Shown here piece by piece: positions 5,515 through 63,471 of a stretch of 64,000 bases of DNA; position 1 is the stretch's first letter; each line of letters starts with the position of its first letter. The DNA lies in NCBI GenBank assembly GCA_964016885.1, contig OZ024741.1, positions 175,956,001-176,020,000 of the forward strand, read 5' to 3'. The notes beneath the pieces are model-generated. The model saw nothing but the letters and a program-made list of their open reading frames with translations, was not told the DNA's origin and did not search any database. The position numbers were made by a program, and so were the translations under genes. Source of the stretch: Eledone cirrhosa. Taxonomy: Eukaryota.

Positions 5515-6361
<847 letters not shown>

Positions 6362-6791: not shown

Positions 6792-6856
6792 TATTTCATT
6801 ATACATATTTCAAGGACACCAAGTTAAATTATGGTGTCCTTTCATCAGACAAAATA
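6792..6856 (-). ncRNA. Type I hammerhead at the PLE 3' end
   Basis: tattttgt CTGATGA aaggacacca..tggtgtcctt GAAA tatgta TA atgaaata: perfect 10-bp stem II. Confidence 0.75.
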
Positions 6857-33994: not shown

Positions 33995-34134
33995 CTATAT
34001 GTGTGTGTGTGTTAGCGTCCGAAACGTTAATACCCTCTTCCAGCTATTTCAAGCGTTAACCTAATATATTCCTTCCATATACTGTACCGATTGTGTTGTT
34101 ATTTCTGTTTACCTTTTACATACATACATATGTG

Positions 34135-35072
<938 letters not shown>

Positions 35073-50056: not shown

Positions 50057-50092
50057 TCTTAACGTTTCAGACGCTAGCCCTTCATCGGAAAA
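50057..50092 (-). ncRNA. Minimal hammerhead, CCGAUGA variant
   Basis: tttt CCGATGA aggg ctagc gtct GAAA cg TT aaga; related partial motifs at ~34011-34030 and ~49381-49410. Confidence 0.55.
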
Positions 50093-50867: not shown

Positions 50868-51052
50868 GTGGATTGGCAGTATCGGTAGAGGGTCGGACTC
50901 CATGCTTTGCATGAAGGAGTTACGGCCCTTTGCGGTCTGAGTTCAAATCCCGCCGAGGTTAACTTTGCCTTTCATCCTTACAGGGTCGATAAAAAAAATA
51001 CCAATAATACACTGGGATAATTGCTGGCCTTGTTCCAAAGGTAGAAACATTT
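50868..51052 (+). mobile_element. tRNA-SINE family A
   Basis: gtggattggcagtatcggtagag..gagttcaaatcccgccgaggttaactttgcc. Confidence 0.88.
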
Positions 51053-52288
51053 ATTTCTTTAAACCAATAAAATATAATTGAGGCACCATAATTCCAAGCT
51101 TAAATTTCCAATACTCCTTTTTACCGAGTGGGCAAATGATCAAATTGATCATCTAGCTTTAGTAAACCTATTGTCACACAGTTTGCTCAATGATAATTTT
51201 GTAACTCATTTACGCATATTTTTTCCAAAACTTCATTTTATTAAATATATTCTAAAACATGTTTTATATGTACATTTTGTCAGCCGCTACTTTCTTGTAT
51301 ATGTGTTCCATTCATAGGTGTGGTTGTGGCTTTAGAAATCTACCAGCAATATTTTATTTCAATCTGTTTCATTAACTACTTTTCTGTTAGTACGTTTGTA
51401 GTTTAACTGATATCAGAGATTTTGTTGCTCTGTCAATATTCGTTTTATGTAAAAAGAGTCACTATGGTAGTATATGGCTTGAGGTGAATGAAAACAAATG
51501 TGTGTGGTTGTAGAACGAAAATACATGTGAAAGAAAGCAGACAGGTGGGAAAGAGGGAAGAATGGAGATAACAAGAGAGAAAGATAGAAAATATATATAT
51601 TTCTTCTTTTTTGTAAAGTTAGATGCACCAAATAAATTTTTTATAAAAGAAGAATCTGTAAGTTTTCAGATCTCAAAACATTTCAAAATGTTTACACATC
51701 CAAAGAGAATGTTTCATACAGCAAATTACTTCTTTGAAATCTGGACTTTCATGTTTGCTTTAGAATTTCTAACAAACCTGTCCCTATGTAGAATTTTGAC
51801 ATATAATTAAACTTGACAGCTGTAATGCCTTGATAGATAGTTACTACAGTTCCTCTCAAATATAACCACACGGTGTTTTGACTAGTTTGCTATAGATTGA
51901 GAGGATTTCATAATACAAATTCTAAATCACTTAAATACGTTCACAGCTTTTATTCAAGTTACTCATAGTTAGATTGTATGTTGTTGATGTTGTATAGAGC
52001 AGACCTATGATCAAAGAAACCATTCCAGCCACCAACATTGTGTAATCTTTTTATATCAGCGAGTATGTAATTCAATCTATCTCTTTTAGGAAGAATTGAC
52101 TGTTGATTCTAGCATCTTGTGTGACACATTTATAGGTTTGTATAAAGACGTAACTTTTGATTGATTCGTAGGGGTGCCGTAGGGATCTGAGGCATTTAAA
52201 ACCTGGTGGGGATCATCCTTCTCCAGCTGATCTCTTTCAGAGTAGGTGAGAGAGAGAGGGATATATGTATATTAGAGAGAGAGAGAAA

Positions 52289-53120: not shown

Positions 53121-53350
53121 GGTTTGGGGGCGGTGGATTGGCAGTATCGGTAGAGGGTCGGACGCCATGCTTTCCAGCATAGAGTTACGTCCCTTTACGG
53201 ACTGAGTTCAAATCCCGCCGAGGTTATCTTTGCCTTCCATCCTTACGGAGTCGATAAAATAAAGCACCAGTGACGTACTGGGGTCGATTTAATCGACTTT
53301 CCCCTCCCGCTAAATTACTGGCCTTCTGCCAGTAATTACTAGAAATCATG
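53121..53350 (+). mobile_element. Full-length tRNA-SINE family A with TSD
   Basis: A and B boxes; atttaatctt duplicated at 53111 and 53351. Confidence 0.9.
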
Positions 53351-56901: not shown

Positions 56902-57116
56902 TTATGATATGTAGGTATGCGCCTGCTAGAAAGTAAGATAAGGAAATAATATGAGTGAGTGTATATATATATGTATATATAAAATATGTAGTTTAGAAAG
57001 CCACAACAATGCAGATGGGAAATCTCGAGGTCAGAAGTGAGTGAGAAATAGGAGAAAAGTGAAAATGAAAATGAAAACAAAACAAAGGTAGAAGGTTTAC
57101 CGTAGTGGAGATTTAA

Positions 57117-57152
57117 TCCCAATATTTCGGGCTCACGCCCATCAACGGGGGA
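57117..57152 (-). ncRNA. Hammerhead-like variant (CCGUUGA core) in the pLTR
   Basis: tccc CCGTTGA t gggc gtga gccc GAAA ta TT ggga. Confidence 0.6.
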
Positions 57153-57591
57153 AAGTTCCAAAAGGGGGGGGGGGGCAGGCTAAGCCGGAGAAAGTTGTAT
57201 TGTCGTTAAAACATAGGAATGCCGTTATGGGGAAAATTCAAACGAGGGAAAGAATGCGCGTGCGGTGATAGGATGTGGCAAAAGCTACTGACCAATTGGG
57301 TTAAATCAATAGGGTGCGCTAGCGTGTGAAAGCCGTAAAATATGTGTGTGTAAATATATATGTGTGTGTAACTGTGTGTGTATATGTGTATGTGTGTATG
57401 TATGTGAGTGTGTGTGTGTGAAAGATAGTGGGCCGTAGAAGCTGGAAAACAAAGAGTGTGAAAGGTGGTAGGTTGTATAAACATGTGTGCGTGTATAAAT
57501 ATAGATGTGTGTGTGTATGTGTATGGGTATACATATAAGTGCGTGTGTGTGAGAGATAGTAGGTCGTAGGGGTTGTTACTGGTCACTATGG

Positions 57592-58677
57592 TTAAATTAG
57601 CCATGTCAGCTCATTTCTCTCAGCCCGGTTGTTAAGTGGGGGTCTGAGGTTCTTAATAACAAGTGCTTCCTTTATCCTTAAGGATCCGATGCTGCGTTCA
57701 GTCGCTAGGACTGTGACCAAGGGTCTGCCCTGTGGGTTTCCGCATTTAAGGATGTGTTTACGGAAGGAAGATGCGTTGGTGTTGACATGTTCCTTGATAC
57801 GAACATGTAGGGGTCGGATGGTGCTACCTATGTAGAACTTGTTACATTTATCGCATTGAATCTTATATACAACATAGGTGCGTAGGCAATCTGCCCCCCG
57901 TATCGGGCAGTTGCTGAGGGAACACGTCCCATCTGACTCGTCGGGTTTGTTGGAGAGGCATCTTCGGAGCGAAGGTCCTGTGTGGGCCAAATGTATGTCA
58001 AGTCCTTCCCTCCGTATGGCCCTGCGGATGGCGTTCGTGGTATATTCACTCAGGTGGGGGATTTTAAAGAAGCACCTGCTTTTATCTAAGTTTCTAGTGG
58101 GTGTCTGTCTATTGGGTCTGGGGTCTCTAATTCCGTTAATCAGTCGCTTGGGATATCCATTAGACTTGAGTAGATTACGGAATTGCGTGGTATGGGTAAG
58201 ACCACCCATCGGGTCGCTGCATCTATTAGTGATCCGTGTAAGTTCATTTAGGACATAGCCTCTCTTAGCGTTGTTGGGGAGGGCTGAGTTGTAATGCACA
58301 AATAAGTCCTTGCACGCTGCCTTGCGGTAGAAGGTGGTGTTTATGTCTCCTTCTTCCGAGATGTTGATACGGAAGTCGAGGAGGGCGAGTGACCCGTCTT
58401 CTCCAGGGTGTTCGATGGTGAAATCGACGTGATGGTCAGTGTCGTTGAAGATTTGGTGAATTTCATTCGCCATCTCCCGGGAAGAAGTGAGTATCAGTAT
58501 GTCATCGACGTATCTGGAGTAGAAGGCGACGGCGTTGGGTTGGCAGGTGTTGAGTGCCTTGCGTTCCAGGTGGTCCATGTACGAGATCGCAAGTATGCCG
58601 GACAGACTAGAGCCCATAGGCAGCCCAGAGATCTGTTTGTACGTGTGGCCGAGGAAATTGAAGAATGCATTATCCAC
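57592..58677 (-). CDS. Penelope-like RT plus GIY-YIG endonuclease (frame extends to ~58940 across one TGA at 58747-58749)
   Basis: SLDVVALYTSVP upstream; QISGLPMGSSLSG, SRYVDDI, FYRK, VVYKIQCDKCNKFYIGST..RIKEH..IKEALVI..P.LN. Confidence 0.93.
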   Translation of the reverse strand: MDNAFFNFLGHTYKQISGLPMGSSLSGILAISYMDHLERKALNTCQPNAVAFYSRYVDDILILTSSREMANEIHQIFNDTDHHVDFTIEHPGEDGSLALLDFRINISEEGDINTTFYRKAACKDLFVHYNSALPNNAKRGYVLNELTRITNRCSDPMGGLTHTTQFRNLLKSNGYPKRLINGIRDPRPNRQTPTRNLDKSRCFFKIPHLSEYTTNAIRRAIRREGLDIHLAHTGPSLRRCLSNKPDESDGTCSLSNCPIRGADCLRTYVVYKIQCDKCNKFYIGSTIRPLHVRIKEHVNTNASSFRKHILKCGNPQGRPLVTVLATERSIGSLRIKEALVIKNLRPPLNNRAERNELTWLI

Positions 58678-59096
58678 AACGAAGGAGAGGAGTTGGTGGA
58701 TGTCCGTGTGTGTGAGTCCGAAGCAGTGTAAGTTAGATGCTCGGACTCATTCGGTCAACAGGTCGGCGGCTGGGGATGCTGGTACGGAGGTATAAAGGGC
58801 GACCACATCAAGACTGAAGGCATATCCGTTGTCCTTTCTGGTGTTGGGCGCCAGATGGTGTAGTCGCTCCAACAACTCCTTTGAGCTGCAGACGTGGGCT
58901 GGTAGTGTGTGTATAATGGGTTTCAGTAGTGTATATACACACTACGTGAGAAATGTGTAAGGGATGAAAGGAGATAAGGAAAGGTAGATAACAGATAGTC
59001 GAGGTTCTGGATGGTACGAGTGTCTGTACACACTCACATAGATATTATAAGATGAAACAAACTTTTTTCTATATTATATATGTATTATGTAAAACA

Positions 59097-59262
59097 TGGT
59101 AGAGCGTCAGACACCATGTTTTGCAGCATAGTTATGGCCCTTTGCGTTCTGAGTTCAAATACGCCGAGGTTAACTTTGCCATTCATTCTTAAGAGGTAGA
59201 TAAAATAAAGTACCAGTGGTGCACTGGGGTAAATCGGTGGTCTTGTGCCAAAAGTAGAAACT
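59097..59262 (+). mobile_element. tRNA-SINE family A
   Basis: ggtagagcgtcagac..gagttcaaatacgccgaggttaactttgcc. Confidence 0.82.
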
Positions 59263-59343
59263 CCATATTATATGTATATTATATATACATACGGTGTGCG
59301 TCATCTACTCATAAGCATACATTTCGTACATATAACACACTCA

Positions 59344-59420
<77 letters not shown>

Positions 59421-59421
59421 A

Positions 59422-59462
<41 letters not shown>

Positions 59463-59476
59463 GTTTGTAAAATGTA

Positions 59477-59524
<48 letters not shown>

Positions 59525-59640
59525 TCGTTTGTGTGCGTGTGTGTCCCTTGGTCTACGGTTCAGAAATGTACGTGTATATGACGGAAGTGCTTGATAGTGA
59601 TACTTCAAGGGGAAGAGATAGAGATAGATAGAAAGATGAT

Positions 59641-59676
<36 letters not shown>

Positions 59677-59687
59677 GGGGAGAGAGG

Positions 59688-59718
<31 letters not shown>

Positions 59719-60018
59719 GGAGAGGGAGAGAGAGAGAGGGAGAGGACAGTGAAGGGGATGAGAGTGCAGGAAGGTAGATTAATACCTATATATATCGACA
59801 TCAACTGATAATATACTTTTGTGAGGTATGCCATACAATATTGATTCGAAATTCTCATATACAGTGATTGCAGCTGATGAAACAATTCCATCTCACTTTT
59901 CAAACCTACCCTGCAGCGTACAGGTAATCAGAGCGAATGACAACCGCCCTGTAAAAGTACACGATCAACAAGCACACATATACACATATAGATTCACATG
60001 TATATGCATATATAATCA

Positions 60019-60089
<71 letters not shown>

Positions 60090-60199
60090 TGTAATGTACA
60101 TAGTTTCCGTTTGATTGTCTTTTCGCTTCAGGGACGCTTCCTATCTGTGTGCTTGAATGCATGCATAAAACACACACACACGCACACACACATATGCAG

Positions 60200-60290
<91 letters not shown>

Positions 60291-60392
60291 TATAAATATA
60301 TATATATATAATATATATATATAAATATATATATATATAATATATATATATAAATATATATATAATATATATATATATAAATATATATATAT

Positions 60393-60424
<32 letters not shown>

Positions 60425-60994
60425 ATATATATATATATATATAAATATATATGTATATATGTAATAGATATTAATAATATATATATATATTTATAATATT
60501 AACGATAAGGAGCAGGAACGAAGTATAAATATAACATACACTATATATGTCGATATATATATGTGTGTGTAAACAATACTTAATAGAAAATATATGGACC
60601 CTCATGAAAGACGAAGATAAAATTATTACATTCGATTCAACTTTTATGATTTTATGTCGAATATTCAATTCGTCACTAGAAATTTTTCGAACACATATTG
60701 TTTCTTTTTTACATATAGCTGCCCTCTCTACCACTAACTGTTCATCTCTGAAATAAATGTGGAAACCATTTTTGGTGTCCACTCGCTAGTTTCTTTTATT
60801 AAATATCTGTGAACCAAAGAAGACTCGTACAGATGAACCAAGAGTTGATCTATTGATACAGGAGATGACGAAGGTGTGGTGTGACAAGTTGTGAGACGGA
60901 AACGTTGAAACTGAGCTTCCTCGTCTGCCAGCCCTGTAATGGGGACGGAAAAAGTATTCATCACGAAGATGAAGATGATGGAACAATCACACAT

Positions 60995-61176
60995 AATTGT
61001 TTCTACGTTAGGCACAAAGCCAGCAAATACCCAGTGCATTACTGGTACTTTATTTTATCGACCTAGTAAGGATGAAAGGCAAAGTTAACCTTGGCGGGAT
61101 TTGAACTCAGAATGGCAAGGGCCGTAACTCTGTGCGTCAAAGCATGGCGCCCGACCCTCTACCGATACTGCCAATC
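60995..61176 (-). mobile_element. tRNA-SINE family A
   Basis: Reverse complement of 50868-51052. Confidence 0.87.
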
Positions 61177-61184
61177 ATAGAATA

Positions 61185-61425
61185 CACACGTTCTAGAAGG
61201 AACCATCGTCAATACATACATATAGACAATATTGAACATGCACTAGAAAGGCCCATAGTAAAAAGGTTGACACACTCTAGAAAGATCCAGTCAAAATGTT
61301 TATAACCTCTAGAAAGACCTTTTGTCAAAATGTGGGCACGCACTAGAAAGACATATCGTCAAACAGTAGATTCGATCTAGATGTATCTATCGTTAAAATG
61401 TGAACACACTCTAGAAGGACATATG
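61185..61425. repeat. Degenerate ~37-bp minisatellite
   Basis: Recurring cacactctagaaagac..cgtcaaaatg. Confidence 0.7.
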
Positions 61426-61574
61426 TGCAATTGTCCATAATATAACGAAAAGTTGACGAAACGTTGCTACATAAAGATAATTATTTAATCGGTATTGAAC
61501 ACTCTTTCTCGCGTTTATCAATACTAAACGTATATATATATGTATATATATGTATATATATGTATATATATGTA

Positions 61575-62063
61575 TAAAATATGTAGTTTAGAAAGCCACA
61601 ACAATGCAGATGGGAAATCTCGAGGTAAGAAGTGAGTGAGAAATAGGAGAATAGTGAAAATTGAGAGAAACGAAAATGAAAACAAAACAAAGGTAGAAGG
61701 GTTACCGTAGTGGAGATTTAATCCTAATATTTCGGGCTCACGCCCATCAACGGGGGAAAGTTCCAAAAGGGGGGGAACAGGCTAAGCCGGAGAAAGTTGT
61801 ATTGTCGTTAAAACATAGGAATGCCGTTATGGGGAAAATTCAAACGAGGGAAAGAATGCGCGTGTGCGTGATATATGGGATTAAATCTCTACTACGGTAA
61901 CCCTTCTACCTTTGTTTTGTTTTCATTTTCGTTTCTCTCAATTTTCTCTATTCTCCTATTTCTCACTCACTTCTTACCTCGAGATTTCCCATCTGCATTG
62001 TTGTGGCCGTCTAAACTACATATTTTACACATTTCGCAATGCTTCAAGCAAACTTTAACACCC

Positions 62064-62340: not shown

Positions 62341-62384
<44 letters not shown>

Positions 62385-62453
62385 TATGAAGAGAGAGGAA
62401 ACATTTAGATATAATTAGTAATAAAATGTATCATACCTAAACTGTTCCTAAAT

Positions 62454-62541
62454 TCCTCGACTACGTAGTTTCGTGGCATAAACAAAAACAATATATCAAA
62501 GATATAGAGTCCTTGCGAGGTCTGCCGACTTATCAAGAGGA
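62454..62541 (-). ncRNA. Type I hammerhead, U3-A8 variant (copy 1)
   Basis: tcctc TTGATAA gtcggca..tgccac GAAA ctacgtag TC gagga. Confidence 0.82.
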
Positions 62542-63044
62542 TACCTCATTTTACTAGTCTCAAGAACGCGTCTACACGACGTGAGAAAGAATCCCAAAAG
62601 GCGGAGGGGGAGACAGTCACGCGATATAACGGTCGAGAAACAGAGCTAAGCCTCTTATAACCACGAAGAAAATACCACGGAGGCGGAGGGGGTATTCATA
62701 TCGAGGCCGTAGAAGAGGTAGTGAAGAAGGCGAGAAGTATGAGTAATGGAAGCTTTCCAGTTGTCCCCACACTTCAAAGATTGCTCGACCAGAGGGAGTT
62801 ATTAATATATTTAGAAACACACAGATACATGCGGACACACACATATATACATGAATGCATCCGCACCCAACTGTGAGTTAAGGGTGCCAACTTCACCGAT
62901 GTTGCTCAATGAATGACTGGGACAGACCAATTCAGTTTGAACCAGACTGAACCAGTATCAGAGTTAAAAATACATTATGAAGAGAGAGGAAACATTTAGA
63001 TATAATTAGTAATAAAATGTATCATACCTAAACTGTTCCTAAAT

Positions 63045-63132
63045 TCCTCGACTACGTAGTTTCGTGGCATAAACAAAAACAATATATCAAAGATATAGAG
63101 TCCTTGCGAGGTCTGCCGACTTATCAAGAGGA
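63045..63132 (-). ncRNA. Type I hammerhead, U3-A8 variant (copy 2)
   Basis: Identical motif 591 nt from copy 1. Confidence 0.82.
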
Positions 63133-63471
63133 TACCTCATTTTACTAGTCTCAAGAACGCGTCTACACGACGTGAGAAAGAATCCCAAAAGGCGGAGAGG
63201 GAGACAGTCACGCGATATAACGGTCGAGAAACAGAGCTAAGCCTCTTATAACCACGAAGAAAATACCACGGAGGCGGAGGGGGTATTCATATCGAGGCCG
63301 TAGAAGAGGTAGTGAAGAAGGCGAGAAGTATGAGTAATGGAAGCTTTCCAGTTGTCCCCACACTTCAAAGATTGCTCGACCAGAGGGAGTTATTAATATA
63401 TTTAGAAACACACAGATACATGCGGACACACACATATATACATGAATGCATCCGCACCCAATATATATATA

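Follow-up and report, generated by a model that had tools for sequence, protein, structure and literature searches.

Hammerhead ribozymes are near-universal in Penelope-like elements (PLEs), yet they are weak and dispensable for insertion in vitro. The PLE hammerheads themselves, their dimer design and the inverted arms of the elements are already known. Even with a canonical core, the minimal hammerheads of PLEs show weak cleavage that requires a dimer or trimer (PMC4209133). Poseidon of Anolis (PAc; Frangieh et al. 2024) is, like the element studied here, a C-terminal-endonuclease PLE with a hammerhead in its pseudo-long terminal repeat (pLTR), and its copies likewise extend beyond the motif to a downstream 3′ end; its motif overlaps the start of the open reading frame (ORF), requires protein to cleave, and is dispensable in vitro, where mutants still insert, while no RNA reads start or end at its cut and the available text mentions no U4 or A6 change (PMC11167929). 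Here we analyzed a 64,000-nt stretch of the Eledone cirrhosa assembly GCA_964016885.1 (contig OZ024741.1, positions 175,956,001–176,020,000, forward strand; hereafter the window, with positions counted from its first nucleotide), in which a 5′-truncated PLE on the minus strand carries a hammerhead with the core CCGUUGA, that is, with U4C and A6U relative to the canonical hammerhead. Our preferred reading, to which we assign a probability of roughly 0.5, is that this motif is a conserved fold that would act as a weak, dimer- and probably protein-dependent self-cleaver, cutting only a fraction of transcripts, in a PLE family whose majority core is CCGUUGA.

The motif lies 444 nt past the stop codon of the PLE ORF (Table 1) and shares with the described PLE minimal hammerheads the type I topology, the pLTR location, a 4-bp stem I, the extra nucleotide at 9/10.1, G10.1–C11.1, GAAA, a palindromic 15.1–16.1 sequence in place of stem III and a U at position 17 (PMC4209133). 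Stems I and II and the H17 of the minimal type are present, and the departure is confined to the core, which reads C4 and U6 within the C3-U4-G5-A6-N7-G8-A9 of that type and keeps the C3–G8 pair, G5 and A9. All 56 motifs in Figure S3 of Cervera and de la Pena (2014) read U4-G5-A6, in contrast to CCGUUGA, although their descriptor fixes the core; the core variant that they describe is U3–A8, unlike U4C/A6U (PMC4209133). An earlier note, made from the letters alone, had described the two stems, GAAA and CCGUUGA, all of which we confirmed; it left unmentioned that A9 is followed by an extra U before stem II begins, a regular feature of minimal hammerheads in PLEs. Its description of the core as identical in both direct copies holds, and the identity covers the 27-nt string from C3 to U16.1, which occurs exactly twice in the window (57122–57148 and 61727–61753; matched in 0 of 100 shuffles); at the cut, however, the copies differ, copy 2 having A in place of G at position 1.1 (61725).

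Several lines of evidence establish this motif as a genuine PLE minimal hammerhead in the CCGUUGA register. The threshold of a hammerhead scorer, which was built with prior knowledge of the motif, was reached by none of 1000 shuffles of the 600-nt 3′ region. Predicted pair probabilities were 0.99 for stem II, ~0.45 for stem I and 0.75–0.96 for the distal helix. When 14 related loci (the subset of 25 motif-bearing loci selected for similar stem II length) and the two window motifs were aligned with MAFFT, the core was gap-free in this register, 94.3% of cells were paired and 9 of 11 pairs showed changes on both sides, a level that no shuffle out of 500 attained, whereas slid-register controls paired just 26–41% of cells. 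Because the aligned motifs had been selected by a structure-based scan, the alignment serves chiefly to confirm the register and only secondarily as evidence for the fold. Of the 102 matches that an Rfam search of the window gave at E ≤ 1, none was to a hammerhead family, all being microsatellite-driven microRNA or tRNA-like matches; a second minimal motif at 50088 was likewise missed. One could instead place the active site three nucleotides downstream of C3, where the letters UUGAUG (57145–57140) would supply U3-U4-G5-A6-U7-G8 and a canonical U-turn. That register requires a G at position 9 and an inserted G ahead of position 3, abolishes the strongly predicted stem II, and is at odds with the gap-free alignment of the related motifs, so that we regard it as highly improbable.

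To establish the core of the family, sequencing records from four of 12 listed runs were aligned to 56960–57330 (thresholds of 80% likeness and 5% share). Three runs span the core: X1 (280 contigs), X10 (584 raw restriction-site-associated DNA (RAD) reads) and X7 (378 contigs, with another organism label and from another study); a fourth, X5, gave three records, none over the core. X1 and X10 are runs of the best-matching organism, X1 possibly being the source sample, and X10, like X7, comes from a different study. No listed substitution fell within 57108–57151 in any of the four runs, and 13 further low-ranked substitutions, which are unlisted, were bounded from per-run change counts. In X1 the counts leave no A>T or G>A place outside the listing, which puts canonical A6 below 5% of depth and canonical U4 likewise; its single unlisted change is T>A, leaving positions 3–8 without a variant at 5%. 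In X10, with ~220 raw reads over the core, there is no A>T place at all, so canonical A6 is again below 5%. CCGUUGA is therefore the majority core of the family in three runs and under two organism labels, which bears out the expectation of the earlier note that CCGTTGA would stand in the consensus. The local copies could not have settled this by themselves: a minor allele at 57033 (~12% of family depth) is common to all three local pLTR pieces, which probably form a single sub-lineage, so that their agreement does not count as independent evidence. That shared descent is what a decay private to this locus, against a canonical family core, would have going for it, and the read and contig data largely refute such a scenario, which we consider even less probable than the shifted register.

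The rest of the motif appears to be maintained. Of 38 listed substitution places across 340 nt, none lies inside the 35-nt motif at 57117–57151 (P = 0.0125 if places are uniform; P = 0.067 on a conservative count that excludes reference-private places and a poly-G cluster). In X7 the 35-nt motif is retained while its flanks have diverged: contigs are clipped at the motif edges (9 at 57117, 24 at 57151), and depth is 11–27k inside the motif versus 4.4k and 130 in the neighboring bins, the latter just upstream. A frequent variant at 57107 converts a distal-helix G–C pair to G–U and preserves the helix. On this moderate evidence, purifying selection on the motif as a whole is likely; the evidence does not extend to an advantage of C4 and U6 themselves.

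We compared this core with those of related PLEs by scanning metagenome contigs, where 52 loci encode related proteins; all 52 were scanned strictly and the 42 with a mapped ORF end more loosely, with blast in addition. A hammerhead motif was present in 25 of the 52 (23 after merging two duplicate pairs), ~50–435 nt from the ORF end. By any scan it was absent from 17 of the 42 loosely scanned loci, many with short flanks, and a core-free hairpin scan of 19 loci gained only L003 and L033. A6 is kept in all 25 related hammerheads and U4 in 23, the exceptions being L018 (C4) and the decayed L033. Given this, and the weakness of published CUGA double mutants, a fixed U4C/A6U core is unusual. In the literature we found no report of a U4C+A6U core or of a natural A6U, although the largest PLE hammerhead-variant survey, by Lunse, Weinberg and Breaker, may list such cores. 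The same comparison revealed that the 3–8 pair covaries in PLE minimal hammerheads — A3–U8 in L008 and L011, G3–C8 in L025, U3–A8 in L026 and L027 — so that, with other loci, it spans all four Watson-Crick types; L004 has U3–G8.

Would the variant cleave? Natural hammerheads with a U4C core (a viroid) or an A6C core (phage Bcep176) have low but real activity, the latter favoring Mn2+ (PMC3088659, PMC7151607). They alter the same two U-turn positions as the PLE core, but singly and within full hammerheads with tertiary contacts, whereas here both positions change (to C and U) in a stem-III-less motif that is the majority form of a repeat family. In a complete pairwise mutagenesis of a type III hammerhead, CUGA single and double mutants were all weak, with only a C3/G8 swap giving rescue (PMC9901934). 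By this comparison the CCGUUGA hammerhead likely cuts at most weakly, if at all. Weak, assisted cleavage nevertheless remains our preferred reading, since the dimer palindrome is intact and no further catalytic base has changed: with the catalytic G8 and G12, the C3–G8 pair, G5, A9, GAAA and U16.1–U17 all in place, some cleavage may be retained. In a tandem transcript, two motifs could pair through the AUAU palindrome and so form stem III, and the two U-turn changes would slow cleavage and not abolish it. Several points weigh against this interpretation. The double-hammerhead fold (−28.2 kcal/mol) is not the predicted minimum, as two monomers (−31.0) and the best dimer (−38.0) both come out lower. 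In copy 2, the A at position 1.1 leaves stem I without its closing pair. Statistical support for conservation is modest, and the family is fairly young, with most reads 90–99% alike. Finally, the unlisted changes leave room for a minor canonical U4 in X10 or X7 and a canonical A6 in X7; the lowest listed substitution share is ~11%, so such alleles are probably rarer still.

A ribozyme that is catalytically dead, its hammerhead-shaped RNA being retained for another job such as binding the reverse transcriptase (RT)–endonuclease or marking the starts of short copies, is a less probable account and the main rival. The mutagenesis results point this way (PMC9901934), as does insertion in vitro without cleavage (PMC11167929), and the family has spread carrying the CCGUUGA core. 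Depth in X1 also falls ~8-fold just upstream of the core (83.8k at 57129–57141, 24.6k at 57155–57167, 10.6k at 57168–57180), as if many copies started at the 5′ edge of an uncut motif. This step, however, falls on a poly-G run at which the reference differs from the other family members; beyond their clipping point at 57170, 103 X10 reads carry on into homologous sequence, making the step partly an alignment artefact; and the depth of reads or contigs is no copy number. A dead fold also leaves the retention of the remaining catalytic-core bases and the dimer palindrome unaccounted for. In X7, depth drops ~200-fold just upstream of the core; many short copies may start at the 5′ edge of the motif there, with the poly-G run as a confounder. 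Between weak cleavage and a dead fold, a family spreading with two presumably crippling core changes and the rest of the motif kept amounts to a natural experiment: activity would mean that the core consensus of hammerheads, and with it the descriptors used to search for them, is too narrow, whereas inactivity would mean that the fold is retained for a non-catalytic function.

The locus also offers a possible footprint of cleavage. Head-to-head with copy 2 lies an inverted arm (the two arms match over 155 nt with 97% complementarity), and the earlier note had placed its start at or within 1 nt of the predicted cut. This was borne out: the arm begins at G1.1 or, when the T at 61876 is taken as part of it, at U17, with copy 2 homology ending at 61873. 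An alternative alignment of the junction fits as well, with a 3-nt ATA overlap (61871–61873) and one inserted A, in which the arm starts 5 nt upstream of the cut. An arm would start at the cut by chance with a probability of 1% if a single end is considered and of 3% with three ends evenly spread over 310 nt; the figure would be higher if 5′ ends cluster near such motifs, as is suggested by the copy of a sister family at 34013, whose start lies 16 nt ahead of its cut. Inverted 5′-truncated copies beside an upstream PLE pLTR have been described with the same head-to-head arrangement of pLTR and arm and a TA-rich target (Craig et al. 2021, PMC8557442); in the available text their arm start is not linked to a ribozyme cut, unlike the candidate junction here. 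Our literature search found nothing on where inverted arms start.

The strongest form of the idea holds that the variant cuts efficiently, through mutual rescue of U4C and A6U or with the help of a cation or protein, so that the cut defines the RNA 5′ end and arms start preferentially at G1.1. The position of the arm within 1 nt of the cut speaks for it, the arm is exactly the product expected if an upstream pLTR were cut and then copied as far as its end, and Mn2+ rescues A6C in other hammerheads (PMC7151607). Across the four head-to-head junctions available, however, only the 61877 arm starts at the cut; the others are X1 57198/57236 from the same family and, in related families, L034, whose arm traverses an intact motif, and L031/L032, whose arm begins 40 nt past the cut. 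Both direct copies (57117 and 61722) pass through an uncut, intact site. X1 depth shows no step at the cut (92.6k, 90.2k and 83.8k across it), the larger step lying 5–30 nt upstream of C3 and being in part a poly-G artefact of the reference. No loose end fell at 57120/57121 among the best 23 of 103 loose-end entries, six of them from X10 (the smallest with 26 reads). This junction test is insensitive, as only 30 of the 280 X1 records aligned in part, contigs rarely carry junctions and RAD reads sample few loci; that X1, a set of contigs, has no loose end at the cut therefore carries little weight. Together with the clustering of 5′ ends near motifs and the competing ATA alignment, these observations leave efficient cutting improbable, and the proposal of the earlier note that the integrating RNA owes its 5′ end to cleavage is so far unsupported.

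Under the preferred reading of weak, assisted cleavage, most cDNAs would be copied from RNA uncut at the hammerhead site, so that most 5′ ends would be set by something other than cleavage. A minority of arms may start at the cut. The 61877 arm may derive from a rare template that had been cut and was then copied as far as its end, with second priming at an upstream pLTR end, or it may reflect chance; by analogy, such an arm is the product that second priming on a cut tandem RNA would be expected to leave. Twin priming of LINE-1 offers a parallel for this origin. Somewhat less unlikely than efficient cutting, yet still doubtful, is the broader possibility that the CCGUUGA core is active in nature in spite of the CUGA rule — with protein, dimer geometry or a cation such as Mn2+ coming to its rescue — and that its cut occasionally or regularly supplies the RNA 5′ end of inverted arms. 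If the cut does supply arm 5′ ends, these arms would preserve, in the genome, traces of in vivo cleavage by a PLE ribozyme.

The host element itself is a canonical PLE with a C-terminal endonuclease (EN+). Its single ORF, 5′-truncated and with one stop, runs from RT to GIY-YIG (Pfam RVT_1, E = 9.4e-11; GIY-YIG, E = 1.8e-4, narrowly short of the Pfam cut-off), and its pLTR copies stand in the partial tandem and inverted arrangement expected of such elements. The CCHH residues C298, C301, H320 and H331 of the endonuclease are invariant in a protein alignment (A2); this motif is missing from the Hydra clade. Ahead of the endonuclease, a three-Cys linker is spaced C-x4-C-x6-C, compared with CX2-5CxxC in the Neptune/Nematis linker. 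The closest named homologue is an Octopus bimaculoides protein (55% identity), which makes a cephalopod host likely. All 447 codons are open save one in-frame TGA (58747–58749). Reading this codon as selenocysteine, as in Naiads, was considered and dropped, since the domain order is not that of Naiads and homologues carry ordinary residues at this position.

Table 1. Features of the hammerhead-bearing PLE and its pLTR copies, in window coordinates.
Feature	Position	Strand	Details
Minimal type I hammerhead motif, copy 1	57104..57162	-	includes predicted distal helix, 57157-57160 with 57106-57109
Core CCGUUGA	57148-57142	-	C3=57148, C4=57147, G5=57146, U6=57145, U7=57144, G8=57143, A9=57142
Stem I	5′ strand 57152-57149; 3′ strand 57120-57117	-	UCCC/GGGA
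Stem II	57140-57129	-	GGGC/GCCC
Extra U between A9 and stem II	57141	-	
GAAA	57128-57125	-	palindromic AUAU next; U17=57121
Predicted cut	57121^57120	-	
5′-truncated PLE ORF	57592..58935	-	RT, Cys linker, C-terminal GIY-YIG endonuclease with CCHH motif (Pfam)
Copy 1 3′ untranslated region/pLTR region	56962..57591	-	TA-rich microsatellite at end
Copy 2, 5′-truncated pLTR copy through intact hammerhead	61557..61873	-	core 61753-61747
Filler between head-to-head 5′ ends	61874..61876	.	2-3 T/A bases, or part of alternative microhomology alignment
Inverted arm, pLTR piece	61877..62032	+	predicted cut (G1.1) to element 3′ end; head-to-head with copy 2

Beyond the metagenome loci, a genome scan with a single PLE protein gave no match, and one with a protein alignment gave a single 1.6-kb contig (L054, CBDHEM010000056.1) encoding a 54% identical PLE protein, with no hammerhead in its 300-nt A-rich flank and no pLTR match in its assembly. 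This contig sits in a bacterial metagenome-assembled genome and is likely binned host DNA. Six viral-contig matches were short and confined to the endonuclease region; another viral match (L053), to a degenerate pattern of the variant core, has neither U16.1 nor stem I and was attributed to chance. In one related locus (L003, 1149–1180), homology to L023 ends 2 nt past the predicted cut and gives way to TA-rich sequence, the 3′ strand of stem I being missing; the 3′ end of this copy possibly lies at the cut.

Other hammerhead-like sequences occur in the window. The second minimal hammerhead, at 50088–50052 (minus strand), is unrelated to the first and has the core CCGAUGA, with U4C alone, and the palindrome ACGU; a sister copy at 34013–34131 (plus strand), 75% identical, begins inside loop II directly after a (TG)n run. 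A motif at 34429–34355 (minus strand) combines the canonical core CUGACGA with a long stem II and a palindromic stem III, has an inverted partial sister copy at 34765–34960 and is probably a remnant of another PLE family. Canonical-core motifs also lie at 6848 and 5832 (minus strand), near a weak match to a PLE endonuclease C-terminus (6060–6161) and adjoining an inverted repeat (5516–5707/6160–6357). A ~190-nt repeat resembling a short interspersed nuclear element occurs in about ten copies in the window (for example 60993–61184, 59098–59261, 50868–51055 and 53133–53284), two of them between copy 2 and the ORF. Finally, a 492-nt direct repeat of 99.8% identity (62379–62870 and 62970–63461, 591 nt apart) represents either a recent tandem duplication or an assembly artefact.

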